39,157 bases of DNA, taken from the NCBI GenBank assembly GCA_002068205.1, contig MVZB01000001.1, positions 1 to 39,157 of the forward strand. The letters run 5' to 3'. Source of the stretch: a candidate division BRC1 bacterium ADurb.BinA292. GTDB lineage: Bacteria > Sumerlaeota > Sumerlaeia > MVZB01. Under the pieces are notes generated by a model. It did not search any database, was not told the origin of the DNA, and saw only the letters and a list, made by a program, of their open reading frames with translations. Positions 12,510-38,231 of this stretch are shown in pieces (position 1 is the first letter of the stretch; each line of letters begins with the position of its first letter). A program made the position numbers and the translations under genes.

Positions 12510-12836
12510 ATGCCCGCATCCGCCTACAACTGTCACTACGTCCACGCCACGGGGACGCTGCAGATCGTCCTGCTGCCCGGCTTCCGCCAGGAATACTGGG
12601 ATGAACTGATGCATTATGTGGAAAACACCGACCGGTCGGGCAATTACCGCTGGGATCTCGACCTGCGGCGGATCGAGGTGATCAACAGCATGATGCTCGG
12701 CCTGATCGTCGGTCTGCGCGCCCGGCTCGACGCGCGCGGCGGCAACCTGCGCGTGCTGATCGCGCCGAATTCGAAAGTCGAGCAACTCCTCCAATTGACC
12801 CGCTTGGACCAGATCGTCGAGACGGTGAAAGCCTGA
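12510..12836 (+). CDS. STAS-domain anti-sigma-factor antagonist-like protein
   Basis: 108 aa. The pattern DLRRIEVINSMMLGLIVGLRARLDARGGNLRVLIAPNSKVEQLLQLTRLDQIV matches the SpoIIAA/RsbV-type STAS layout. The Ser in INSMM occupies the usual phospho-site position. Confidence 0.7.
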   Translation: MPASAYNCHYVHATGTLQIVLLPGFRQEYWDELMHYVENTDRSGNYRWDLDLRRIEVINSMMLGLIVGLRARLDARGGNLRVLIAPNSKVEQLLQLTRLDQIVETVKA

Positions 12837-15851: not shown

Positions 15852-17334
15852 TCATTCTTCCTCGCGCGGCGGGGGCTCGCCCAGCGTCGCGGCACGCAGC
15901 AGCCGCTCCTCGGTCCACTGCGCGCGCGGCGCCAGCGCCACGAGCCGTCCGCGATACATCACGCCGATCCGATCGCAGATCCCCAGCAGCTCGGGGTTGT
16001 GGCTGCTCGTCAGCAGAATCGCTTTTCCTTCGGCCGCCTCACGATTGAGCCACTCGTAGATCAGCACCTTGGAGCCGACGTCGATCCCGCGCGTCGGCTC
16101 GTCGAGCAGCAGCACGCGCGCCTGGCTGAAGCGCAGCCGGGCCAGCGCCACCTTCTGCTGATTGCCCCCCGAGAGATCCAGCGCCCGCTGGCCGATATCG
16201 CGGTAAACCGTCGAGAGCGCGTCGGCGGCGGGGATGGCGAGGCGGCGCAGGCGAGCGCCCGACAGCCAGCCGATGCGCGCGATCCGCCCCAGTGCGCCGA
16301 GGCCGATGTTTTCGGCGAGGCTCAGCCGCAGGGCCAACCCCTCGTTCTTGCGATCCTCGCTGGCGAAGCCCAGGCCGAGCCGGATCCGGCGATCCGCCCC
16401 CGCCGTCAGCGGCCGCGGCCGGTCGCCGGCGATGAGGACGGCCCCGCCCGACGCCGGCTGCAGCAGGCCGTAGATCGTCCGCAGCAGTTCGCTGCGTCCC
16501 GAGCCGACCAAGCCGCCGATGCCGACGACTTCGCCCGCGCGCAGCGACAACGAAACGCCGGCCGGCCGGCCGCCGGGGCCCGACAGATTCGCCACGGTGA
16601 GCACTTCGGCGCCGGGCGTCCGCGCCGGGCGTGGAAAGAGCTGATCAACGCGGCGGCCCACCATCTTCGCCACCAGGTCATCCGGTCCGATCTCTGCGAC
16701 GCGGCCGCTATCCACCGTACGACCGTCGCGCATGACCGTGTAGCGGTCGCACAGTTCCATCACTTCCTCCAGGAAATGGCTGACATAAAGGAAGCTGACG
16801 CCCTGATCGCGCAGGGCGCGGATCCGGTCGAACAGATGGCGGGCGTCGGCCTGAGTCAGGGCGCTCGTCGGTTCGTCCAGGACGATCAGTTGCGCGTCGG
16901 CCGCCAGCGCGCGGGCAATCTCGACGAACTGCTGCTGCGCCAGCGGCAGTCGCCCGGCCGGCAGGTGCAGCGGGATGTGCGACTGCTCGAGCAGGGCGAG
17001 CAGCGCGCGCACGCGCTCAGCGGACGGCCTCCGGCGGATCCAGCCGGCCCGCGCAAGTTCCTGACCCAGCAGGACGTTTTCGGTGACGGTCAGATGGGGC
17101 GCGATCGCCAGTTCCTGATGGCAGGTGGCGATCCCGCGCCGGCAGTCGGCGGTCGCCCGTGCCTCGGCGCGCCCCCGCGAGAATCTTGATCATCGTGCTC
17201 TTGCCGGCGCCGTTCTCGCCGACGAGGGCGTGGATTTCTCCCCGGCCGATGCTCAGCTCCGCGCCGTCGAGCGCGTGCGTCGCACCGAAATGCTTCTGGA
17301 TGGCGTGAGCGTGGAGGAGAGGGGATTCGGGCAT
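15852..17334 (-). pseudogene. ribose/galactoside-type (RbsA/MglA-like) tandem ABC ATPase disrupted by an out-of-frame internal deletion
   Basis: ORF 17334-17017 gives [17 protein letters not shown]...[19 protein letters not shown] and then nonsense. The rest of the protein ([26 protein letters not shown]..., continuing through the 386-aa ORF ending at 15852) is in another frame. Only 37 nt separate ILAG from GIA. E. coli RbsA has 27 codons at this position, so about 44 nt are missing in the region 17136-17178. Confidence 0.7.
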
Positions 17335-17364: not shown

Positions 17365-17594
17365 CTCACTCGAAAATCTGTCCGCTATTCGCGGGATCGC
17401 CTGGATCGGTTCTGCCGTCCCTAAGGGACTCTGTCGCTAGGGGTGTGCCTGTTTCCCGCCACTGGAGTAGCGGGCTGAAGTCTGCCGTCCCTGACGGGAC
17501 TGCCCTGCTGAAGAATCCGGCAAGGCCAAGGCTGTTCGACTCGGCAGTTTGCCCCCCCATTTCCATCCCTCGTTGTGAAGCGCGGGTTCATGAG
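17365..17594. repeat. structured intergenic repeat element, copy A (core)
   Basis: Aligns block by block with 27449-27674, 33353-33574 and 36371-36700. Shared blocks are CTCACTCGAAAAT, GATCGGTTCTGCCGTCCCtaaGGGAC, CCCGCcactggagtaGCGGGCTGAAG, CTGCCGTCCCTGACGGGACTGCC and CCCTCGTTGTGAAGCGCGGGTTCATGAG. It is flanked by a 9-bp inverted repeat: GTCCCTCGT (17349-17357) and ACGAGGGAC (17615-17623). Confidence 0.85.
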
Positions 17595-17662: not shown

Positions 17663-18676
17663 TTATTCCTTCAGGTACTCCTCCAGCGGCGGCGCGATGA
17701 CTTCCTGAATCTCGGGCAGCTCGAAGTTCTCCCGTGTCACCAGCGCGACGCCGGTGTCGATCCGATCCGCCACCTCGTCGCCGGCGAGGGCGCGCGCGGC
17801 CGCCATCACGCCTTCATAACCCATCAGGAACGGATTCTGCACGACCAGCCCGTCGATCTGCCCCGCCTTCAGGGCGTCGAGCAGTTTGGGGCTCGCATCG
17901 AACCCAATGAACCTGACCTTGCCCGCCAGGCCATGGTTGCGCAGGGCGAGCAGCATGCCGAACGTGCTCGATTCGTTCGGACAGAAGATGCCGTCGATCT
18001 GCTGGTCCTTCAGCGCGTTGAGCAGGCTGTTGCTCTTCTGCAACGCTTCGTCGGAGGTGGCGCCGGCATACTGGTTTTCGCTGATGACCTTGATCTCGGG
18101 AAACTCGGCAATGGCTTTTAGGAAGCCGGCCTCGCGCGCCTCGGTGGAGGCGCTGCCGACGGCGTAGCGCAGCATGATGACATGGCCCTTGCCGCCGAGC
18201 AGCCGGCCCAGTTCGCGTCCCGCCAACTCGCCCCCCCGCTCATTGTCGGTGGCGACGAAACTGACAATCTCGACCCCCTCGCGTTCGATGTCGCTGTCGA
18301 TGATGACGACGGGGATGCCGCGCCGGTTGGCCTGAATGACGGCGTTGCGCAGCGAACGGGCGTCGAGCGGCGCCAGCACGATCGCATCGGTCTTCTTCGC
18401 CACGTGCGATTGCACGATCTGGATCTGGCTGTTGCGGTCGTCCTCGCGCAGCGGCCCCTGCCAGGTGATCGCAACCTGGTCCAGTTCGCGATCGGCCTTG
18501 GCGGCGCCGGCGTGAACCGCCTGCCAGAAATCATGCGTCGTTCCCTTGGGGATGACGACGATGTTGGAACCCTCGCCCGCCTGCGCGTGAAGCTGAGGCG
18601 CGGCGAACGCGACCAGCGCCGCGACGGCGGCCAGGCGCCACGCGGAGCGCGCGAGCGAATGGAAATGAACGGGCAT
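17663..18676 (-). CDS. periplasmic sugar-binding protein (RbsB-like) of the ABC transporter
   Basis: I place the start at ATG 18676 (MPVHFHSLARSAWRLAAVAALVAFAAPQLHAQA signal peptide, GGAGAG Shine-Dalgarno). Blocks IVVIPKGTTHDFWQAVHAGA, DAIVLAPLD and GIPVVIIDSD are typical of the Peripla_BP family. The 58 codons upstream in the track ORF look spurious. Confidence 0.85.
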   Translation of the reverse strand: MPVHFHSLARSAWRLAAVAALVAFAAPQLHAQAGEGSNIVVIPKGTTHDFWQAVHAGAAKADRELDQVAITWQGPLREDDRNSQIQIVQSHVAKKTDAIVLAPLDARSLRNAVIQANRRGIPVVIIDSDIEREGVEIVSFVATDNERGGELAGRELGRLLGGKGHVIMLRYAVGSASTEAREAGFLKAIAEFPEIKVISENQYAGATSDEALQKSNSLLNALKDQQIDGIFCPNESSTFGMLLALRNHGLAGKVRFIGFDASPKLLDALKAGQIDGLVVQNPFLMGYEGVMAAARALAGDEVADRIDTGVALVTRENFELPEIQEVIAPPLEEYLKE

Positions 18677-19126
18677 GATTGACTCTCCTCTCGGCACGGA
18701 TTCACCCAAGCCCGAGCATTTTAAGTCGCCGCCCACCGGGCTGCAAGCGATCCGGACCGACTGATCCCGATCGCCGTTCGCGATCATCGCGCTTCCCCCG
18801 CGCCCCTGGCGGAATTGCCGACTTCGGCATGCGGCCCGCTTCTTGCTCACAGCAGCTTAAACGGCCGGGCGCTCCGCCCCGCGCGGCGCGGCCGCCCGAC
18901 CAGTTGCCCCATGCGAGGCTGCATCATGGCGAAGTCAACGACCAAACAGATTGGCCGGCGGCGGCGAGAGCCGGTTCTGCCAACTCGTCAGCCGACACGG
19001 CGCATCATCATTTCCCCGCGGGTAATTTCCATTGGAATTTTTGGATAATTCAAACGACGCACCGTCCAGTCATCCCGAGGGGCTTACTCCCCGGGGTTCG
19101 ATCCAAACGCGAAGAGGGTAATTACA

Positions 19127-19350: not shown

Positions 19351-20522
19351 ATGGAAGTATTCGAGCACGTGATTCTTGGGGGCGGCGTCGCCGCCGGCCA
19401 CGCCGCCCGCGAGTTCGTCAAGCGGGGCGTTAAGCCGGGTCAGTTGGCCCTTGTTTCGGCCGAGGCCTCGTTCTGCTACGAACGCCCACCGCTTTCCAAG
19501 GCCCTGCTGGCGGGCACGAAGCGGCCCGAGGAAACGCTGATCAGTCCCCCCAGGTTCTATGCGGAAAACGGCATTGCCTTTTATCATGAATGGCGCGCCG
19601 TCGGCATCGACTTCGGCCGGCGGCTGATGATGAACGATCAGGGCGAGACGATCGGCTTCCGCAAGCTGATGCTGGCGACCGGCTCGCGGGTGCGCAAGCT
19701 GGCCATCGCCGGCGGCGATCTGCCGGGCGTGCATTACCTGCGGACGCTGGAGCATGCGCGCGCGATCGTCGGCGCGCTGCGCGACGTGCGGCGCATCGTC
19801 GTCATCGGCGGCGGCATTTCACGCCCGAAATCTCGGCTTTCTTCAAGGGCTACTTTCAGAGCAACGGTATTCATCTTATCTTTTCCGCCAGGCCCGCGGC
19901 GCTTCACGGCCCAGAGCATGTCACGCGCGTCACGCTGGAGACCGGCCAGTCGCTCCCCGCCGAAATGGTGGTCGTCGGCATCGGCGTCGTGCCGGAGCTG
20001 GAGCTGTATCGTCAGACCGGCCTGCAGCTCGACGCGGGCGTCCTGGCCAACCAGTTCCTCGAGACCAACATCCCCGATGTCTGGGCCGTCGGCGACATCT
20101 GCCAGTATGAGGATGTGCTGTTCGGCAAGCGCCGGCGCATCGAACACTGGGATAACGCCAAAAGCCAGGGCGAACACGCCGCGCGCGCGATGCTCGGCCG
20201 GCGCGAACCGTTCATACACGTGCCCTACTTCTTTTCCGACGTGTTCGATCTGTCGTGGGAATTCTGGGGCGACACCGAGGAGGCGGATCGCGTGCTCTAC
20301 CGCGGCGATCTGGGGCGCGGCGGCATCAGCGCGTGGTGGCTGCGCGGCGACCAGGTGCACGCCGCGTTCGTAATGAACCGGCCCGATGAAGAACGGCGCG
20401 CCGCGCCGCTGCTGATCGCGCACGGCACGCCGATCAACGCCGAATGCATTGCCAACATGGAAATTCCACCGGCGCGATGGACCCCGGCGCAGAACTGCGA
20501 AACTGGTCCCTCTCTTGCTTAG
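19351..20522 (+). pseudogene. FAD/NAD(P)H pyridine-nucleotide-disulfide oxidoreductase (ferredoxin-reductase-like) with an out-of-frame internal deletion
   Basis: Frame 1 reads MEVFEHVILGGGVAAGHAAREF...LMLATGSRVRKL...RRIVVIGGG and then nonsense. Frame 2 resumes at about 19818 with FTPEISAFFKGYFQSNGIHL...VVVGIGVVPE...VWAVGDIC...IEHWDNA. The roughly 30 residues that normally follow the second GxGxxG (yIGlE.A..l...G..Vt...) are absent. Confidence 0.7.
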
Positions 20523-26432: not shown

Positions 26433-27359
26433 TCACCGGCCGCGATCCTCGTCCGACTCGTCAGCCTCGTATTCCCACGGCGGGATGTCGAGGCTCAGTT
26501 CCCGGTCGCGCTCTTCCTCGGCGGCGAACATCTCGCGTTTCTGCCGGGCGAACCGCCGCTTGCGCCAGTAGGCCAGCAGAAACAGCACCCCGGCAAAGAG
26601 CCAGATAAAGCCGGACCCGCTCAGGAAGGCGATCCAGGTCCAGACGTTGCGGTGGTCGCGCCGCCACTGCGCCTCCAGCGAACGGCGGAAATGGACGTCC
26701 CACAGCCGGGTGAGCAGCCGCGGCCCCTCCACCGGGTCGGCCAGTTCGCGCGCCAGCGGCGCCGGGTTGAGGCCCCCCGGGCCGGCCGTCGATTCCGGCC
26801 AGCTTCGCTCCAGATAGAACCGCGTCACCGAGAGGCTCTGGGCGTAGGCCAGTTCCTGCAGTTCGGAACCGATCGCAACCTGGCTTTCGAGTTGCTCCAG
26901 CGGGATCAGCGCGCCGAAGGCGCCGGCGACCTGGACGCGCCACGCCGATCGATAATTGCCCTCGCCGGCCACCAGCATGGCCAGGCCCTCGTTGAGCCAG
27001 CCGGGCAGCTCGCCCCGCACGCGGCGACCCAGAATCAGGTGAACCATCTCGTGGACCAGCGTGCGCTGCTGCTCGACGGGGGTCTGCCGGAAGAACGCCT
27101 CGCGATGGATGACGATTTCGTTGCGGCGCGAACGGGCGACCGCGACCACATGCGCCGGCCGCGATTGCAGGTATTCATGGAATTCCCGCTCGCTCCCCAG
27201 CGAGACGATGCGCGCCGTCTGATCCAGGCGCAGACCCAGCCGGGCCTCGGCGGCCTCCAGCGCCCGCTCGGCCGAGTCCAGCAGCGCCGGCCCCCACGGC
27301 GCGTCCGCGTCGGCCTGATGCAGACGGATCCGGGGGGTGGGTGCGAGGGAGGCGGGCAT
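26433..27359 (-). CDS. peptidase-MA-like zinc metalloprotease with C-terminal TM segment and acidic tail
   Basis: HEMVH (HExxH) followed by WLNEGLAMLVAG (third-ligand Glu context). One TM helix (IAFLSGSGFIWLFAGVLFLLAYW). I prefer the start at ATG 27359. The alternative at 27389 lies inside a tandem 9-mer repeat. Confidence 0.6.
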   Translation of the reverse strand: MPASLAPTPRIRLHQADADAPWGPALLDSAERALEAAEARLGLRLDQTARIVSLGSEREFHEYLQSRPAHVVAVARSRRNEIVIHREAFFRQTPVEQQRTLVHEMVHLILGRRVRGELPGWLNEGLAMLVAGEGNYRSAWRVQVAGAFGALIPLEQLESQVAIGSELQELAYAQSLSVTRFYLERSWPESTAGPGGLNPAPLARELADPVEGPRLLTRLWDVHFRRSLEAQWRRDHRNVWTWIAFLSGSGFIWLFAGVLFLLAYWRKRRFARQKREMFAAEEERDRELSLDIPPWEYEADESDEDRGR

Positions 27360-27369
27360 GGGCCGTATT

Positions 27370-27674
27370 AGAAGGGACAGAAAGGACATAAGGGATATAA
27401 AGGACGGATAGGGGCCATTATCATCCGTTCAGGGTACGTCGTGAAGAGCTCACTCAAAGACATGTCCCCCAATCTGGAGATCGCTTGGATCGGTTCTGCC
27501 GTCCCTACGGAACCCTATAGCTATGGGCATCCCGGTTCCCGCCGCTGAAGTAGCGGGCTGAACACTGCCGTCCCTGACGGGACTGCCCCGCGGAGGACCC
27601 GGCCAGGCCGAAGGCGTTTGGATCGACGGTCCACCCCCAGTTTCCTCCCTCGTTGTGAACCGCAGGATCATGAG
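27370..27674. repeat. structured intergenic repeat element, copy B (core 27449-27674, plus 5' purine-rich module 27370-27413 and shared linker)
   Basis: Same block order as copy A. The invariant GTCCCTGACGGGAC is at 27570-27583 and CCCGCcgctgaagtaGCGGG at 27537-27556. The upstream part (GAAGGGACA...TCATCCGTTCAGGGT...GAGCTCACTC) is shared with copy C. Confidence 0.85.
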
Positions 27675-27767: not shown

Positions 27768-29153
27768 ATGATCGCCATGATCCAGGTCCGGCAGCTCAGC
27801 AAACGCTACATGCTCTACGACCGGCCGCTCGATCGGCTGGCGGACTGGCTGCTGCCGGCGGCGCTGCACCGCGGCCATCCGTTCTGGGCGCTGCGCGAGA
27901 TGACGTTCGACGTCGCCGCCGGCAGTTCGGTCGGCATCATCGGCGTCAACGGCGCGGGCAAATCGACCCTGCTCAAGATCCTGACCGGCACGACGCGCCC
28001 CACCAGCGGCGACTATCGGATTCAGGGGCGCGTCTCCAGCCTGCTCGAACTGGGAACCGGATTCCACCCGGAATTCACCGGTCGCCAGAATATCCAGTTC
28101 GGCGCCAAGATGGCCGGCCTGACCGATGCCGAACTGGCCGAGCGGTACGACGGGATCGTCGAGTTCGCCGAGCTGGGCGACTTCATCGATCAGCCCGTGC
28201 GCACGTATTCCAGCGGGATGCTGCTGCGCCTGGGGTTCGCCCTCGCCTCCTCGGTCGACCCCGATGTGCTGATCATCGACGAAGCCCTCTCGGTCGGCGA
28301 CCTGCATTTCCAGCAGAAGTGCCTGCGCCGCATCCGCGAGTTTCACGAGCGCGGCACCACCGTCCTGTTCGTCAGCCACGATCCCTCGATGATCCAGAAT
28401 TTCTGCAACGAGGCGATCCTGCTGGATGAGGGCCGCATGATCGACCGGGGTAAACCGGACCAGGTCATTGATTACTACACGGCGCTGCTGGCCGAGAAAT
28501 ATCGCGACGGGGGCGCCGGCGTCCGGATCGTGCGGCCCCGCGACGACGCACCGGCGACCGACACCGCCCAAGCCGCCGAGGGCCCGGCGCCAGACGCCGC
28601 CGCCGACCAGAACGGGTGGAAGACGCCTCCGCTGCACGCCCGGGGGCACCGCACCGGCAACTTCCGCGCGATGATCACCTCGGTCTGGCTGGAGGCGCGC
28701 GCCGTCCACGGCAATTCGCAGATCGTCGTCACGGGCACGTCGGCCGTGCTGCACGTCCGCTGGATCGCCCGCGAGCCGATCCCCTCGGCCACCGTCGGCA
28801 TCATGCTGCGCGACCGCCTGGGGCAGGAGATCTTCGGCGTCAATTCGCACTACCGCGAGGTGCGGATGGGACCGTTCCAGCCCGGCGAATCGGTCGACGT
28901 CGGCTTCCGCATGCCGATCAACCTGGGCGAAGGGCTTTATTCGATCACCGCCGCCGTCCATGAGGGGGAAAACCACATCGAGACCTGCTACGACTGGGTG
29001 GAGCATGCCTTTTCGCTCCAGGTGCTGCCCAACCCGGAGGAGCGCTTCACGGGACTCTGCCGCCTGCCCGTGGAGATCGAGGTTCAGCGCGAACCGACGC
29101 CGCCGGCCGAACGCCAGTTCGCCGAGTGGGTCCGCTCGCGGCTTGCCACCTGA
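27768..29153 (+). CDS. polysaccharide/O-antigen ABC exporter ATP-binding protein (Wzt/TagH type) with a C-terminal extra domain
   Basis: 461 aa. Walker A GVNGAGKSTLLK, signature SSGMLLRLGFA, Walker B LIIDEALSVGD. The N-terminal YMLYDRPLDRLADW pattern is typical of Wzt/TagH. The roughly 200-aa C-terminal region is consistent with a Wzt-type glycan-binding domain. Confidence 0.85.
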   Translation: MIAMIQVRQLSKRYMLYDRPLDRLADWLLPAALHRGHPFWALREMTFDVAAGSSVGIIGVNGAGKSTLLKILTGTTRPTSGDYRIQGRVSSLLELGTGFHPEFTGRQNIQFGAKMAGLTDAELAERYDGIVEFAELGDFIDQPVRTYSSGMLLRLGFALASSVDPDVLIIDEALSVGDLHFQQKCLRRIREFHERGTTVLFVSHDPSMIQNFCNEAILLDEGRMIDRGKPDQVIDYYTALLAEKYRDGGAGVRIVRPRDDAPATDTAQAAEGPAPDAAADQNGWKTPPLHARGHRTGNFRAMITSVWLEARAVHGNSQIVVTGTSAVLHVRWIAREPIPSATVGIMLRDRLGQEIFGVNSHYREVRMGPFQPGESVDVGFRMPINLGEGLYSITAAVHEGENHIETCYDWVEHAFSLQVLPNPEERFTGLCRLPVEIEVQREPTPPAERQFAEWVRSRLAT

Positions 29154-31167: not shown

Positions 31168-33171
31168 TCATCCGCCCGCCGCTTCGGATCCCCCACCGCC
31201 CGGTTGATAATCCGGGATCAGTTCCTTGAGCATCCGGCGGATCGCGGCGTCGTCCCGCAGCACGGCCAGCGCCTCCAGCTCGAGGATCCGCGGTCGCAAT
31301 TGCTCCCAGTCGTGCGCCGGCTGCGACGAACGGAAAATCTTCGGATGCGCCGTCGGCTCGCGGCCCTGCTCGGCCGTCAACAGCTCCTCGAACAGCTTCT
31401 CGCCGGGCCGCGCCCCCGTGAAGACGAGCGGGATATCGCGCTCGGGCTCCAGCCCGCTCAGCGTGATCAGGTTGCGCGCCAGATCGACGATCTTGACCGG
31501 CTCGCCCATATCGAGCAGGAAGACCTCGCCCCCCTGGCCCTGCGAGCCGGCCTCGATCACCAGGCTCACCGCCTCGGGGATCGTCATGAAGTAGCGCGTC
31601 ATCTCCGGGTGGGTCAGCGTCACCGGCCCCCCCGCCTGGATCTGCCGGCGGAAGAGGGGAATCACCGAACCGCGGCTGCCCAGGACGTTGCCGAACCGCA
31701 CGGCGACGAAGCGCGTCGCCCCCGGTCGGTTCAGCGCGCTCACGATCATCTCGGCCAGGCGCTTGCTGGCGCCCATCACGCCGGTCGGCCGCACGGCCTT
31801 GTCGGTCGAAATCAGGATGAATCGCTCGACCCCGGCGGCCCGCGCCGCCTCGGCCAGGACGCGCGTCCCCATGACGTTGTTCTTGATCGCCTCGGCCGGC
31901 TGCGCCTCCATCAGATGGACGTGCTTGTGCGCCGCCGCGTGCAGGATCACGGCGGGCCTGGCTTCGGCCAGCAGCGGCTCGATCAGCGCCGCGTCGCGGA
32001 CGTCGCCCACGACCAAGCGCAGCGCGGCGCCCTGCTCCCGGGCCGGCGCCGCCAGCTCCTGGTGGATGTCATAGAGGCTGTTCTCGCCGCGCCCGAGCAG
32101 AATCAGCTCGCTGGCCCCATGCGCGAGCGCCTGGCGCGCCAGTTCGCTGCCGATCGACCCGCCGGCCCCCGTGATCAGCACGCGCCGGCCCGTCAGGCAC
32201 GATTCGGCCGGCCCCGCCCCGCGCACGACCACCGGCGGCCGGCCCAGCAGGTCCTCGATCTCCACCGGCCGCAGGCGGCTGACCTCGACCTGGCCGTGGA
32301 CCACCTCCTCCATATTGGGCACGGTGCGGAACGCCAGCCGCGCCTCGCGGCAGTGGTCGACCACCGACCGCATCAGCGCCGGCGTCGCGCGCGGCAGCGC
32401 GATGATCAGCATGTCGATGTGATGGCGCCGGGTCAGCTCGGGCAGGTCCTCGATCCCGCCGGCGACAACCAGACCGTGGATTCGCCGCCCGCGCAAGGCC
32501 GGGTCCGGATCGGCGAAGGCCACCGGCCGCAGCCCCGCCGCCGGGTTGCGCCGCAGATCGCGCGCCACCTGTTCCCCGGTATCGCCCGCGCCCAGGATCA
32601 GGACGCGCCGCGCGCGCGGCGCCCCCGCCAGGCCCGCGGGAAACCGCTCCGCCACCAGCCGCCGGCTCAGCCGCAGCCCGAGCAGGAACGCGCCGGCCAG
32701 CAGCGTGTCGATGACGACGACGCCCCACGGCACGCGCAGGACGTGAGCCCCGCCGGAGGCCAGCGGGTAATTGCCCAGCGACGGGATATACCGGTGGATG
32801 AAGTTGAACACGATCAGCCCGCCGGTGCCGGTGAGCACCGCCAGGACGATATTGACCGCCTCATCCAGGCCGGTGTAGCGCGTGAAGCCGTGATAGAGCC
32901 CGAAGCGCCAGAGCGCGAAGAGACGCAGCGCCACCAGGCACGGCACGAGGTAGAAAAACTGCCGGATATAGTCTTCGCTGAACCGGTCAGGCTGCAGGTC
33001 GAAGCCGATGCTGTAGGCGAGGCCGAAGGCCCCGGCGATGAGGAGGATATCGGCCAGGGCCAGGATCAAGCGCCGCAAGCGCGGATGGCGCGCCATCAGG
33101 CCGGCGAACTGCCCGACGGCGGGCGGGGCGGGGGAGGCGCCGGGCGGCGGTTGGGGATCGGAGGGGTTCAT
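31168..33171 (-). CDS. membrane-anchored nucleotide-sugar 4,6-dehydratase (CapD/PglF/WbpM family)
   Basis: 667 aa. Four N-terminal TM helices, then two Rossmann regions: VLILGAGDTGEQVA and VLITGAGGSIGSELARQ. Also NVMGTRVLAEAA and STDKAVRPTGVMGASKRLAE. Confidence 0.9.
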   Translation of the reverse strand: MNPSDPQPPPGASPAPPAVGQFAGLMARHPRLRRLILALADILLIAGAFGLAYSIGFDLQPDRFSEDYIRQFFYLVPCLVALRLFALWRFGLYHGFTRYTGLDEAVNIVLAVLTGTGGLIVFNFIHRYIPSLGNYPLASGGAHVLRVPWGVVVIDTLLAGAFLLGLRLSRRLVAERFPAGLAGAPRARRVLILGAGDTGEQVARDLRRNPAAGLRPVAFADPDPALRGRRIHGLVVAGGIEDLPELTRRHHIDMLIIALPRATPALMRSVVDHCREARLAFRTVPNMEEVVHGQVEVSRLRPVEIEDLLGRPPVVVRGAGPAESCLTGRRVLITGAGGSIGSELARQALAHGASELILLGRGENSLYDIHQELAAPAREQGAALRLVVGDVRDAALIEPLLAEARPAVILHAAAHKHVHLMEAQPAEAIKNNVMGTRVLAEAARAAGVERFILISTDKAVRPTGVMGASKRLAEMIVSALNRPGATRFVAVRFGNVLGSRGSVIPLFRRQIQAGGPVTLTHPEMTRYFMTIPEAVSLVIEAGSQGQGGEVFLLDMGEPVKIVDLARNLITLSGLEPERDIPLVFTGARPGEKLFEELLTAEQGREPTAHPKIFRSSQPAHDWEQLRPRILELEALAVLRDDAAIRRMLKELIPDYQPGGGGSEAAGG

Positions 33172-33277
33172 CGTGCCCCAAAGGTAATGAGCCCGCTCCC
33201 CGCTTGCAACCTGACTCTAACCGCCGTCGGTCAGTGAAAAAACTGTCCCCGGGACCTCCGACGATGATTTTCGTTTC

Positions 33278-33574
33278 AGAAGGGACATAAGGTAAAGGAC
33301 GCATGCGGGGCGTTTTCATCCATTCAGGGTGACGCCGAGGTGTCGTGATAAGCTCACTCGAAAATATTGCCCGATTCTCGGGATCGCTTGATCGGTTCTG
33401 CCGTCCCTGCGGGACTCAGCCGTTGTGGGGATCCCGGATCCCGCCACTGAAGTAGCGGGCTGAAGTCAACCGTCCCTGACGGGACTGCCTGCGGAAGGAT
33501 CCGGCAGGGCCAGGGTCATTCGAGTCAGCCGTTCACCCCGTGTTTCAATCCTCGTTGAAGCGCAGGTTCATGCG
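33278..33574. repeat. structured intergenic repeat element, copy C (core 33353-33574, plus 5' module)
   Basis: Same block order as copies A and B. GTCCCtgcGGGAC is at 33403-33415, CCCGCcactgaagtaGCGGG at 33439-33458 and GTCCCTGACGGGAC at 33472-33485. Confidence 0.85.
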
Positions 33575-33740: not shown

Positions 33741-34055
33741 TCAATCCAATCCCCGGCGTTTCAGATCAGGCAGCGTCTCGGGTTTGCCCGCTTCCATGAC
33801 CTTGCTCTCACCGGGCAACGCGGTCACGTTCTCGTAAACGCCCGAGTCGCGCCGGACGAGCTTGGTGAAGCCCATCGACTTCAGTTCACTGTCGGTCGTT
33901 GGCGTCGAAATGTTGGGCAGCGAAATCAGCCGTTTGACCGGCCCGCCGCACTCGGGGCAGGTCGTGAGGGCGTCTTCGCTCATCGCCTGGGTCCGTTCGA
34001 AGAAACGGCCCACCGCGCAGGGGTCGGCCAGATGCTCGTATTCATAGACAGGCAT
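33741..34055 (-). CDS. FmdB-family zinc-ribbon protein
   Basis: Start MPVYEYEHLADPCAVGRFFERTQAMSEDALTTCPECGGPVKRLIS. The MP.YEY start and the CPxCG knuckle are the FmdB signature, although the first CxxC pair is reduced to a single Cys. The upstream 33 codons of the track ORF are Gly/Ala-rich and probably not translated. Confidence 0.6.
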   Translation of the reverse strand: MPVYEYEHLADPCAVGRFFERTQAMSEDALTTCPECGGPVKRLISLPNISTPTTDSELKSMGFTKLVRRDSGVYENVTALPGESKVMEAGKPETLPDLKRRGLD

Positions 34056-34363: not shown

Positions 34364-36196
34364 ATGTGCGGAATCATCGGGATGATCTCGCGGCGCGACG
34401 TCGGCACCGCGCTGATCGAGGGGCTCAAGAACCTGGAGTACCGCGGCTACGACTCGTGCGGCTTCGCCACGCTGTGCGACGGCCGGTTCGTGATCCACAA
34501 GGAGGTCGGCCGCGTCGATCGCCTGGATGCCTACCTGCCGGAGACCGAGGGCTGCCACATCGGGATGGCCCACACCCGCTGGGCGACGCACGGCCAGCCA
34601 TCCGAGGCCAACGCCCACCCGCACCTGAGCTACGACGGCCGGTTCGCCGTCGTGCACAACGGCATCATCGAGAACTACAGCGTCCTGCGCGAATACCTGC
34701 GCAAGCAGGGCATCGAATTTCGCAGCGAGACCGACACCGAGGTGATCGCCCACCTGATCGCCCACGAGTACCGCAACAGCACGATGCAGGCGGTGCGCGA
34801 TACGCTGGCGCGGCTCGACGGGACGTTCGGCCTGCTGATCCTCGACCGCGACGATCCGCACCGGATGATCGCCGTCCGCCAGGGGAGCCCGCTGGTGCTC
34901 GGCGTCGGCGACGGCGAGTTCTTCGCCGCCTCGGACGTCTCCGCGCTGATCCAGCATACCCGCCAGGTGATCTACCTCGACGACGGCGAGCTGGCCGAGC
35001 TGACGCTGACCGGCTATCGCACCGCCACATTCACCACCGACCTGACCGTCGTGCACGAGACGACCGAGGTCGACTGGGAGATCGAACAGATCGAAAAGGG
35101 CGGCTTCGAGCACTTCATGCTTAAGGAGATCTTCGAGGAGCCGCAGGCGCTCCGGAACACCTTCGCCGGCCGGCTGCGGCCCGATGAGGGGATCGTCAAG
35201 CTGGGCGGCATCGCCAGCCTGGAGGACGACTTCATCCGCGAGATGCGGCGCATCCTGATCACCTCGTGCGGCACCGCGTGGCACGCCGGCCTGATCGGCG
35301 AATACATCCTCGAGGAACTGGCCCGGATCCCCGTCGAAGTCGAATATGCGTCCGAATTCCGCTACCGCAACCCCCTGATCACGCAGGAGGACCTGCTGAT
35401 CGTCATCAGCCAGTCGGGCGAGACGGCCGACACGCTCGCCGCGCTGCGCGAGGGCAAAACCCGGGGCGCCGAGGTCATGGGCATCTGCAACGTGGTCGGC
35501 TCGACGATCGCCCGCGAGGCCGGCCGCGGGATCTACACGCACGCCGGCCCGGAAATCGGCGTCGCCTCGACCAAGGCGTTCATCACCCAGGTGGCGGTGA
35601 TGCCGATGCTCGCCCTGCAATGGGGCCGCCTGCGCGGCTCCGTCTCGGCCCAGACGGTCGAACGCATGATCGCGCAACTGGGCCGCATCCCCGATCATGT
35701 CGCGGCCGTCTGCGATCAATCCGACCAGATCCGGACGATCGCCGAGCAGTACTGCGAGCACCGCAACTTTCTCTACCTGGGGCGCGGGATCAACTTCCCG
35801 GTCGCGCTGGAGGGCGCTCTCAAGCTGAAGGAAATCTCCTACATCCATGCCGAGGGCTACCCGGCGGCCGAAATGAAGCACGGGCCGATCGCGCTGGTGG
35901 ATGAGAACATGCCAGTCGTCGTCATCGCTACCAAGGATCCGGTTTATGACAAGGTGATTTCCAATATTCAGGAAATCCGCGCGCGGCGCGGCCGCGTGAT
36001 CGCGGTCGCCACCGAGGGGGATCAGGAGATCGCCCACCACTGCAACGATGTGATCTACGTGCCCGAAGTCGACCCGCTGCTGACCCCGATCGTCAACGTC
36101 GTGCCGCTGCAGTTGCTGGCCTATCACATCGCCGTCCTACGCGGCTGCGACGTGGACAAGCCGCGCAACCTGGCCAAGAGCGTGACCGTTGAGTGA
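34364..36196 (+). CDS. glmS: glutamine--fructose-6-phosphate aminotransferase (isomerizing)
   Basis: 610 aa. The MCGIIG N-terminal nucleophile, RGYDSCG, HTRWATHG, two SIS domains (SQSGETADT) and the canonical C-terminus PRNLAKSVTVE. Confidence 0.97.
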   Translation: MCGIIGMISRRDVGTALIEGLKNLEYRGYDSCGFATLCDGRFVIHKEVGRVDRLDAYLPETEGCHIGMAHTRWATHGQPSEANAHPHLSYDGRFAVVHNGIIENYSVLREYLRKQGIEFRSETDTEVIAHLIAHEYRNSTMQAVRDTLARLDGTFGLLILDRDDPHRMIAVRQGSPLVLGVGDGEFFAASDVSALIQHTRQVIYLDDGELAELTLTGYRTATFTTDLTVVHETTEVDWEIEQIEKGGFEHFMLKEIFEEPQALRNTFAGRLRPDEGIVKLGGIASLEDDFIREMRRILITSCGTAWHAGLIGEYILEELARIPVEVEYASEFRYRNPLITQEDLLIVISQSGETADTLAALREGKTRGAEVMGICNVVGSTIAREAGRGIYTHAGPEIGVASTKAFITQVAVMPMLALQWGRLRGSVSAQTVERMIAQLGRIPDHVAAVCDQSDQIRTIAEQYCEHRNFLYLGRGINFPVALEGALKLKEISYIHAEGYPAAEMKHGPIALVDENMPVVVIATKDPVYDKVISNIQEIRARRGRVIAVATEGDQEIAHHCNDVIYVPEVDPLLTPIVNVVPLQLLAYHIAVLRGCDVDKPRNLAKSVTVE

Positions 36197-36370: not shown

Positions 36371-36700
36371 CAAATTCAGACATGTTCCGGCCGCCCCTTC
36401 CAGGGGCTTGAATCGTTGGAGGCGGCGACGCAGGGTTGCGGCCTTCGACCTCCACCCTGCGCTTTATTCCCGTCGTTCCGCTTCGCGGACTCAGCCGGCA
36501 ACCGAGTCGGAATCGCCTGCATTGGTTTTGGAACCTTGAGCGGATTGCGATTTGGGGAACGACCCGCACTGAAGTAGGGGGTTGTAGTCTATCGTCCCTG
36601 ACGGGACCGCCCGGCTGACGGACCCGGCAAGCTCTGGGGCGCTCGAATCGGCCGTTCACTCCCCACTTTCATCCGTTGGTTGTATACTGCCGGTTCATGG
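36371..36700. repeat. structured intergenic repeat element, copy D (divergent, with insertions)
   Basis: It retains the block order: CAGACATGTTCCGG, the hairpin GCCCCttccaGGGGC, GT(T)CCGCttcGCGGACTCAGCC, CCCgcactgaagtaGGG, the invariant GTCCCTGACGGGAC (36594-36607), CCGGCAAG, CGAATCGGCCGTTCACTCCCC and TTTCATCCGTTGGTTGTATACTGCCGGTTCATGG. Confidence 0.7.
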
Positions 36701-36992: not shown

Positions 36993-38231
36993 TTGCCCTG
37001 CATGTCGTTCACCATGATCCACCGCTTCGCGCTCTCATCGCTGGTCGTGCTGACGCTGGCCGGCGCCGGCGCCTACTTTGCCCCCGCGCAGGAACCCCAC
37101 AAGACCCCCGGCGCCGAACTGAAGGAAATCGTTGATCCCACGCAGCCCGTGCTCGGCCCCGAGCAGACGATGCTCGACGCCGTCGCGCCGTTCCGCCGCA
37201 TCCTCTGGGTCACGCGCTGGGATTACCGCACCCCCGAAGATGTCCGCCAGATCTGCTACAATGCCGCCGCGGGCCGTTTCACCGACATTCTGTTTCAGGT
37301 CCGGGGCGAGGGGACCGTCTTTTACAAGAGCGACCTGGAGCCGTGGGCCTGGGAACTGACCGGCCGCACCCCGGCCGCCACCGGCCGCGACCCCGGCTGG
37401 GATCCGCTCGCGCTCGCCATCCAGGAGGGGGCCAAATACGGGCTGCGCGTCCACGCCTACCTGAACGTCCTGCCCGGATGGGGACAGAAACAAACGGCGC
37501 CCCCCTACACCGGCCAGCTCTACAGCGTCCACCGCTCGTGGTTCATGGTCGACGCCGCCGGCAACCGGATGAATCCGGCCAACTGGTATGCCTTCCTGGA
37601 ACCGGGGCTGGAGGAAGTCCGGCTGCACGTGACGAAGGTCTTCGCCGATGTCGCCCGCCGCTACAAGGTCGCCGGCCTGCACATGGACTACATCCGCTAC
37701 CCGATGGAAAAGGGGGACTACGGCTATACGCCGCGCGTGGTCGACGACTTTCGCGCGCTGGTGGGGGGCGAGCCGAAACGCCGCCCCGACGAGTGGGATG
37801 CCTTCCGCCGCCAGCACGTGACCGATCTGGTCGTCGGCATCCGCCAGGCCGTCCAGCAGATCAATCCGAAGTTGGAGCTGACGGCCGCGGTCCTCGCCGA
37901 TCGAACCAAGGCCCTGCGCGCCCACCAGGACGCCCTGACCTGGGTCCGCGAGGGGTATGTCGACGCCATTTTGCCGATGGCCTATACGGACGATCTTGAC
38001 TTATTCAGCGATTATTTGAAGGCTTATCAGGACGAGCCGATCCGGAAACGCACCTGGCCCGGCATCCTGGTGGAGAAGGGAAAGGCCCGCGAACAGATCG
38101 AAATGACGATCCAGGGCGACTTTCCCGCGGTCGCGGTGTTCGCCTACGGCGAGGTCTTCTCCGGCCACCGCCAGGGCGCGCAGGCCCGGGCGATTTACGA
38201 AAAATTCATGGAGCTCGCCAAAAGGCAGTAA
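36993..38231 (+). CDS. glycoside-hydrolase-like GHL10 (DUF187 / YddW-YngK family) secreted protein
   Basis: 412 aa. Signal peptide (MIHRFALSSLVVLTLAGAGAYFAPAQ; the start may be 37014). Blocks LWVTRWDY, FTDILFQVRGEGTVFYKSDLEPW, DPLALAIQEGAKYGLRVHAYLNV, GLHMDYIRYP and VDAILPMAY match the COG1649/GHL10 pattern. Confidence 0.75.
   Translation: MPCMSFTMIHRFALSSLVVLTLAGAGAYFAPAQEPHKTPGAELKEIVDPTQPVLGPEQTMLDAVAPFRRILWVTRWDYRTPEDVRQICYNAAAGRFTDILFQVRGEGTVFYKSDLEPWAWELTGRTPAATGRDPGWDPLALAIQEGAKYGLRVHAYLNVLPGWGQKQTAPPYTGQLYSVHRSWFMVDAAGNRMNPANWYAFLEPGLEEVRLHVTKVFADVARRYKVAGLHMDYIRYPMEKGDYGYTPRVVDDFRALVGGEPKRRPDEWDAFRRQHVTDLVVGIRQAVQQINPKLELTAAVLADRTKALRAHQDALTWVREGYVDAILPMAYTDDLDLFSDYLKAYQDEPIRKRTWPGILVEKGKAREQIEMTIQGDFPAVAVFAYGEVFSGHRQGAQARAIYEKFMELAKRQ

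Follow-up and report, generated by a model that had tools for sequence, protein, structure and literature searches.

Acido-Lenti-1 (Rfam RF01687) was rated a probable non-coding RNA that is not cis-regulatory (Weinberg et al. 2010, Genome Biol 11:R31, PMC2864571), and was reported from Acidobacteria and Lentisphaerae, in some cases close to group II introns, with no function given (PMC2864571). Rfam types it as "Gene; sRNA" (small RNA), and we found no later literature that assigns it a function. Its seed alignment also contains soil and marine reads, as well as an accession (NC_005027) that we take to be Rhodopirellula; Candidatus Sumerlaeota is not part of the published range. A second point of reference is given by the repetitive extragenic palindromes (REPs) and bacterial interspersed mosaic elements (BIMEs) of proteobacteria, short (20-40 nt) imperfect palindromes that carry a conserved 5' GTAG-type tetranucleotide and are present in hundreds of copies, of which those of malE-malF and hisJ-hisQ lie between operon genes. 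Here, we analyzed a stretch of 39,157 nucleotides (nt) from the candidate division BRC1 bacterium ADurb.BinA292 (contig MVZB01000001.1, positions 1 to 39,157; hereafter the window), and our analysis uncovered four paralogous copies (A to D, Table 1) of a low-copy dispersed intergenic repeat of ~230 nt. The core of this element is a divergent, sub-threshold relative of Acido-Lenti-1 lying inside the longer repeat, an assignment that we make with high confidence.

The four copies all lie on the + strand, each in an intergenic gap, and share 73-76% pairwise identity, with nhmmer E-values of 1e-47 to 1e-87; the window has a G+C content of 66.6%, and a 21-nt central motif occurs in it four times with zero matches expected. 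A preliminary description of this DNA had reported a paired motif with a period of 69-70 nt in three of the copies, and both the positions and the spacings were confirmed. In A, CTGCCGTCCC begins at 17412 and again at 17482 (70 nt apart); in B, its two starts are 27496 and 27565 (69 nt apart); and in C, CCGTCCC begins at 33401 and again at 33470 (69 nt apart). The hairpin pattern CCGTCCCT-N3-GGRAC was found four times in the window (0.16 expected) and CCGTCCCT-N2-GGRAC three times (0.19 expected). The gap between CCCT and GGGAC, described earlier as three or four nucleotides, is in fact 2 nt in the first hairpin and 3 nt in the third, while the loop sequences cited for A, B and D were correct.

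To these copies, a core-pattern scan of metagenome contigs added 11 stretches, three of which belong to the same species as the window (98-99% identity). The stretch L009 adjoins the window on its left side and contributes a fifth copy, ~14 kb leftward and on the same strand, placing that copy in the same genome. The remaining stretches contributed four further distinct pattern-bearing copies, together with one, L008a, that lacks the third hairpin. Because they come from the same assemblies and have similar coverage, the other copy-bearing contigs are probably from the same genome as the window. About nine or ten copies were recovered, at least nine of them distinct and in contigs apparently of one genome. 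Five copies spread over ~53 kb of chromosome are all on one strand and both L008 copies likewise share a strand; the 10 kb beyond the right end of the window contained no further copy. By exact matching of the GlmS protein, the species was located in four NCBI metagenome-assembled genomes (MAGs) and one JGI metagenome. The copies are distinguished by indels of 1 and 2 nt, so the element is non-coding, and the sequence flanking the element is not conserved between copies. Among the 23 within-species differences found in or adjoining the copies, none falls in the three main stems, where ~2.8 would be expected by length (P ~0.05).

The relationship to Acido-Lenti-1 was revealed by reporting Rfam matches by E-value. 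At the gathering thresholds there was no match in the whole window, the gathering score of RF01687 being 37 bits, but RF01687 was the only Rfam family with E <0.1 in the whole window, matching copies A, B and C below that score (28.9 to 32.3 bits, Table 1; whole-window E 0.001-0.009). Up to E = 1, copy D had no RF01687 match, and the only other family to appear in the window was one chance sRNA match. The matched segment spans the central and third hairpins, and the first hairpin partially matches the second half of the model. The cores are in register with the RF01687 seed, with all 13 near-invariant columns common to both. The long (central) hairpin, CCCGCCAC-UGAA-GUAGCGGG, has seven standard pairs and one C.A, and the C8 and U9 conserved in RF01687 are present; what had been drawn as a 10-nt central loop is resolved by the Rfam model into C.A, A-U and C-G closing a UGAA tetraloop on an 8-bp stem. 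The linker GGGCUGAAGUCUGCCGU (12 nt) aligns to the model without gaps and keeps G19, G20, C21, U22, C32 and G33. The short hairpin, GUCCC-UGAC-GGGAC-U, forms 5/5 pairs in every copy that retains it. Shared with Acido-Lenti-1 are therefore the 8-bp hairpin on a 4-nt loop, the 12-nt linker starting from GGCU(A/G)A and the 5-bp hairpin followed by U, as well as the multi-copy, intergenic occurrence. The window subfamily differs in having a UGAA loop instead of the usual UNAC, a conserved C.A in the long stem and a short-hairpin loop of 4 nt, 1 nt longer than the 3 nt of the seed, besides its sub-gathering scores and the unmatched copy D.

The first, central and third hairpin stems are essentially invariant in 8 of the 9 distinct copies and therefore show no covariation within the genome, saying nothing for or against structure. 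The copies do not, as had been suggested, change these stems while keeping their hairpins; only the 5' hairpin varies among copies, and it folds in 6-7 of 9 with register shifts and has a mean z of -1.3 against mononucleotide shuffles. Two hairpins of copy D that had been considered homologous to those of the other copies, GCCCC/GGGGC (near 36392-36407) and GTTCCGC/GCGGAC (36475-36490), are outside the alignment or non-homologous in it. The picture is different at the level of the family. When five window-family cores were aligned with 69/70 distinct published seed sequences, allowing one extra loop base, 94.6% of the cells paired, compared with 69.6% in shuffles and 26-45% with the partners slid, and changes on both sides were seen in 12 of the 13 pairs (covariation score of 0.642 vs 0.174 shuffled). 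Changing stems with kept loops is a property of the family across phyla, not of copies A to D. The broader view of the preliminary description, that the repeat is a functional structure rather than decaying junk, finds support in the match of the core to a covariation-supported family and in the presence of the two-hairpin bracket in other phyla, but not in the stem variability it had cited.

The 3' arm hairpin, with the consensus loop UUCGAAU, pairs in 73% of cells across nine copies. Between the first hairpin and the central one lies the spacer with the G-run, in which folding was not in excess of that of shuffles (mean z +0.5). RNAalifold gave consensus energies of -22.7 kcal/mol for the + strand and -23.6 for the - strand with nine copies. 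The G-run and C-run noticed earlier are indeed present in copies A to D, but the long-range helix by which they were thought to close a multi-stem junction was paired by RNAalifold with 4 copies and lost with 9. Insufficient support from nine copies also led us to reject the long-range helices CTCACTCGAA/TTCGAGTCAG, GGGAU/AUCCC and GGUUCUGCCG/CGGCAGGGCC, as well as an acceptor-like stem in A and C as a closing helix. The 3' arm recalls the T-arm of tRNA and of tRNA-like domains (transfer-messenger RNA [tmRNA], YrlA), since G-UUCGAAU-C corresponds to the T-loop consensus and CCCCCA follows ~8-15 nt on; it is unlike them in the irregular pairing of its stem. A tRNA or tmRNA was rejected, with 0 genes predicted by ARAGORN and no Rfam tRNA or tmRNA match in the window. 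This arm is specific to the window subfamily and not part of published Acido-Lenti-1, and the Koribacter and Lentisphaera flanks show at most a loose sequence likeness to the UUCGAAU loop (GGUUCAAAU and UUAUUCGAGU in two Koribacter copies).

The flanks of published Acido-Lenti-1 copies provide further insight into the architecture of the element. In at least 4 of 7 Koribacter copies, a hairpin of the form gccGUCC(C/G)-loop-GGACucu is located 22-40 nt before the long hairpin, and Lentisphaera copies carry an imperfect upstream hairpin, GUACC/GGCAC, with one A.C. As the upstream hairpin is also found in these published copies, the bracket of two like hairpins is family-wide. The likeness to Koribacter beyond the core is architectural, with no significant primary-sequence homology (nhmmer E 0.18). 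In Lentisphaera, the seed coordinates show tandem periods of 69, 74, 110, 115 and 192 nt. These periods, together with the upstream hairpin, make the 69-70-nt spacing in the window look like the period of a basic module composed of long hairpin, linker, short hairpin and spacer. We infer that each window copy consists of about two ~70-nt tandem modules, the long hairpin of the first being degenerate, together with a less conserved 3' arm of 90-95 nt; in copy A, the 5' hairpin may represent such a degenerate long hairpin, belonging to a preceding ~70-nt module.

Several variants were observed around this architecture. At positions 5881-6133 of L008, the third hairpin is missing precisely between two GCTGAAG repeats. 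The shorter CTGAAG is found three times in each element, once in the central loop and once behind each of the central and third hairpins. In L003 (827-881, - strand), a solo 3' tail (CCCCTCGTTGTGAACC..GGTTCATGAGCAACTC) was found without the hairpin core, ~40 nt upstream of an AHSA1-family gene, which suggests that the 3' tail is a separable module. Copies B and C have in common a left extension of ~80 nt (Table 1), with AAGGGAC/AAGGAC repeats and TCATCCRTTCAGGGT, that the other copies do not have; it could represent either a module of its own or a common upstream region, and its membership in the element is uncertain.

Which strand acts is a matter on which the evidence conflicts. The - strand is favored by the conserved C.A of the central hairpin, which becomes U.G on that strand and gives a perfect 8-bp stem only there, by the C.A in the first hairpin of copy B, and by a short U run after the leftmost hairpin on the - strand in A, B, C and L008a. 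The published seed points the same way, with 38 A.C against 8 G.U cells concentrated at two pairs, many of them inherited and hence not independent (PMC2864571, supplementary files 61 and 183). The + strand is favored by the 3' arm hairpin (7 G.U vs 2 A.C) and by a small GATC stem (3 G.U vs 2 A.C). Because reversing the strand turns the A.C cells of the seed into wobble pairs, it may be worth re-examining the strand annotated for RF01687. In the published flank file, the gene marks are PTS 37, STP 10, AUG 10 and GUA 8, so that gene ends (47) outnumber gene starts (18). A strand bias derived from this gene context, with a reverse-strand stop downstream in 10 of 10 informative copies, was rejected since it disappeared once the asymmetry of the flanks (100 nt upstream, 300 nt downstream) was allowed for.

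The reading that we favor, tentatively and with somewhat less than even confidence, is that this dispersed repeat with a divergent Acido-Lenti-1 core behaves as a REP/BIME-type structured repeat. The repeat is multi-copy, intergenic and found in either orientation relative to transcription, often after stop codons or in operons; it forms tandem arrays in one host, has a patchy distribution and shows no link to gene function, and all of these traits point to REP/BIME-like behavior. Among nine copies, five are co-directional with the flanking genes, three are antisense and one is between diverging genes, and 8 of the 9 lie downstream of a stop codon, three at 0-9 nt from it. No common functional theme was found among the genes flanking the nine copies: those of the window are listed in Table 1, and the extra copies neighbor genes for a hybrid kinase, a sigma-54 activator, Yip1, HDOD, a pseudopilin, phosphofructokinase, an M23 peptidase and TolB. 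Like proteobacterial REPs and BIMEs, the family is intergenic, often just past stops or within operons, in either orientation, in clusters and tandem arrays and with conserved nucleotides at the hairpin feet. Copy A, for instance, separates a binding-protein gene from an ATPase gene, as the mal and his REPs separate genes of their operons. The conserved hairpin feet also suggest a putative protein partner. The repeat would multiply by duplication or by mobilization in trans, irrespective of the products and direction of its neighbors. When transcribed in either sense, it would add a cluster of stable hairpins to an intergenic transcript, for example at copy A within the sugar ABC operon. The nucleotides conserved across phyla (hairpin feet, loops and linker) could form the contact surface for a putative protein specific for both sequence and structure. 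The identity and the architecture of the element are shown by the comparisons above. The REP-like behavior, the modular reading and the protein partner are inferred, and we hold the mechanism with lower confidence than the identity of the core.

This reading has to be set against several differences and adverse observations. The window unit, at ~230 nt, is composite and carries three to five hairpins, unlike the short palindrome of a REP, and its like hairpins are direct repeats, not inverted pairs. A family-wide 5' GTAG is not conserved, GTAG being found in the long stem of the subfamily and not in the published seed, and no REP-associated tyrosine transposase (RAYT) was identified among the annotated genes of ~150 kb. 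The following points weigh directly against the reading. The copy number, ~10, is far under that of typical REP families, and no mobilizing enzyme was present among the annotated genes of ~150 kb of this genome. Neither family-wide terminal inverted repeats nor target duplications, as expected of miniature inverted-repeat transposable elements (MITEs), were found in the copies; the only end pair is an imperfect one of 6-7 nt, CTCGTGA/TCATGAG, in A, B and C, and the flanking bases are not duplicated. There was no presence/absence polymorphism among the same-species contigs covering each copy. Whole-element folding was only weakly better than that of shuffles (z from +0.25 to -2.45), and the strand evidence, as described above, is conflicting. 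Finally, conservation peaks in the interior of the element, loops and linkers included, and is weaker at its ends, which also fits a stand-alone functional RNA.

Such an RNA is the strongest competitor, and a possible one, though we consider it less probable than a REP/BIME-type repeat: the copies would be a family of trans-acting sRNAs, each with its own promoter and terminator, whose loops and linker bind a protein or target RNAs. The Rfam typing and the rating of Weinberg et al. 2010 agree with it, as do the strong family-level covariation, the better-conserved interior and a placement independent of the function of the neighbors. In A, B, C and L008a, the - strand also has a short U run behind the left-end hairpin, as a terminator would, but these runs are short and lie 3-5 nt off the stem; a scan for intrinsic terminators gave weak - strand candidates at the left end of B and C, none for A and D and none on the + strand. 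No sigma-70-like promoter was found at a conserved position on either strand, which is weak evidence in an unstudied phylum. The position of three copies at 0-9 nt from a stop codon, the lack of conservation of the flanks beyond the element and the tandem arrays of 69-192-nt units in Lentisphaera, unusual for sRNA genes, all disagree with independent genes, as does the conflicting evidence on the strand of the presumed RNA.

An unlikely alternative is a non-autonomous element moved as single-stranded DNA by a hairpin-recognizing HUH/Y1 enzyme, much as IS200/IS605 derivatives are, or REPs by RAYTs, with the two like GUCCC hairpins as putative binding sites. Two near-identical short hairpins with conserved 5' (GCC) and 3' (UC/UG) feet would suit this class, for which the absence of inverted ends and target duplications is expected, and so would the patchy distribution across phyla and the proximity to group II introns noted by Weinberg et al. 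2010 in Lentisphaerae. The shared strand of the five copies over ~53 kb and of both L008 copies is also in line with it, but the chance probability of shared orientation is only about 1 in 32, and the GC skew in the window is weak. The palindrome-associated transposable elements (PATEs) derived from IS200/IS605 resemble the window element in having two imperfect hairpins that are alike, neither inverted ends nor target duplication and chromosomally co-oriented copies. However, the window hairpins are internal instead of subterminal, with conserved sequence extending ~50 nt to the left of them and 95 nt to the right, no transposase (TnpA/TnpB) was found in the window or in the other loci of this genome that were covered, and the left flanks of the nine copies contain no common target motif. 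A cis-regulatory leader, riboswitch or small-protein gene serving the adjacent genes is contradicted and has very little chance of being correct: although all copies are intergenic and ATG-started - strand frames of 57 (A) and 75 (B) codons begin with MN.RFTTR, the neighbors are unrelated and in mixed orientation, no Rfam riboswitch or leader family matches, and a - strand small protein was rejected since 1- and 2-nt indels separate the copies, stops are not conserved, the frames of C, D and L011 reach a stop within 8-9 codons, and a start codon is lacking in L008a.

The coordinates of the copies, of their substructures and of the adjacent genes are collected in Table 1.

Table 1. Copies of the repeat in the window, their parts and the genes on either side (positions in the 39,157-nt window).
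Feature	Position	Strand	Remarks
Copy A	17365-17594	+	from CTCACTCGAAAAT box to TTCATGAG
A, 5' hairpin TCCGC/GCGGG	17382-17396	+	the variable hairpin
A, first GUCCC/GGGAC hairpin (hp1)	17417-17429	+	UUCUGCC before, UCU after; partial RF01687 match, model positions 26-45
A, Acido-Lenti-1-like core	17455-17501	+	RF01687 32.3 bits
A core, 8-bp hairpin with C.A mismatch and UGAA loop	17455-17474	+	followed by the 12-nt linker
A core, GUCCC-UGAC-GGGAC hairpin (third hairpin)	17487-17500	+	
A, 3' arm hairpin GGCUG-UUCGACU-CGGCA	17530-17546	+	T-loop-like 7-nt loop; weak support
Gene left of A, ABC ATPase	15852-17334	-	same operon as gene right of A
Gene right of A, periplasmic sugar-binding protein	17663-18850	-	same operon as gene left of A
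Copy B	27449-27674	+	hp1 27501-27513, one C.A mismatch
B, Acido-Lenti-1-like core	27538-27584	+	RF01687 28.9 bits
B, left extension	27368-27448	+	common to C only
B, 3' arm hairpin	27614-27630	+	homologous to A 17530-17546
Gene left of B, Peptidase_MA_2	26433-27389	-	diverging from gene right of B
Gene right of B, Wzt ABC ATPase	27768-29153	+	diverging from gene left of B
Copy C	33353-33572	+	hp1 33403-33415
C, Acido-Lenti-1-like core	33440-33486	+	RF01687 32.1 bits
C, left extension	33276-33350	+	common to B
Gene left of C, Polysacc_synt_2	31168-33171	-	
Gene right of C, Zn-ribbon gene	33741-34055	-	
Copy D	36470-36699	+	degenerate 5' half; central-hairpin remnant 36563-36581; intact third hairpin 36594-36607
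Gene left of D, glmS	34364-36196	+	
Gene right of D, GHL10 gene	37002-38231	+	

In the operon that contains copy A, a permease gene comes after the ATPase gene. Within the latter, the window is 44 nt shorter at 17143-17169 than the same-species contigs L005 and L010 (25 nt against 69 nt), a deletion that leaves the Walker-A end of this sugar ABC ATPase gene out of frame with the remainder; the frame-shifted gene is either a pseudogene or an assembly error. A second difference was seen at 19807-19821, where the window lacks ~75 nt that L002, another contig of this species, has at 12585-12661. The site, which has GGCGGCGGC-type repeats at its borders, falls within a Pyr_redox_2 gene or immediately upstream of it. 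The window contains no transposase, integrase or RNA gene.

The host most likely belongs to Candidatus Sumerlaeota. The proteins flanking copy D were compared with named relatives, and the closest ones for both GlmS (63-70% identity) and GHL10 (41-45%) are from Candidatus Sumerlaeota or Sumerlaeia. In six related genomes, a total of 130 kb around GHL10 or glmS contained no family member by Rfam or nhmmer. The use of orthologous loci for empty sites or covariation was abandoned, as the GHL10 relatives are at most 53% and the GlmS relatives at most 77% identical and gene order is lost except for the GHL10-DUF2851 pair; the copy-holding intergenic regions have no counterpart in the relatives because the surrounding gene order is not kept. 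In one related genome (L024, 11854-11923, - strand), glmS is directly followed by a match resembling domain V/VI of a group II intron, at 34.5 bits against a gathering score of 40; that locus has no member of the element family. A pattern scan of viral contigs gave no match, a plasmid blastn gave none, and a scan of a genome collection gave one chance match, in a gammaproteobacterial MAG. The family is patchy: it occurs in multiple copies within single species of distant phyla and is lacking in closer relatives so far as these were sampled.

Acido-Lenti-1 has remained an orphan in Rfam since 2010, and a sub-threshold relative is now found in another candidate phylum. What is new is the extended modular architecture across phyla, a probable new host phylum and a doubt on the published strand. 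A bolder extension, which we regard as rather improbable, would make the 46-nt Acido-Lenti-1 motif the core of a larger modular REP-like system beyond proteobacteria, made of ~70-nt units (long plus short hairpin) in one to at least four iterations with lineage-specific arms, occurring in Acidobacteria, Lentisphaerae, Planctomycetes and Candidatus Sumerlaeota and serving as the substrate of a putative trans-acting hairpin-specific nuclease/transposase or RNA-binding protein, with a published strand that may be wrong. For annotation, four of the larger intergenic gaps of the window represent one repeat family and not four separate regulatory regions, and the iterable ~70-nt module with its conserved extra flanking hairpin leads to a better model and better search profiles for Acido-Lenti-1.

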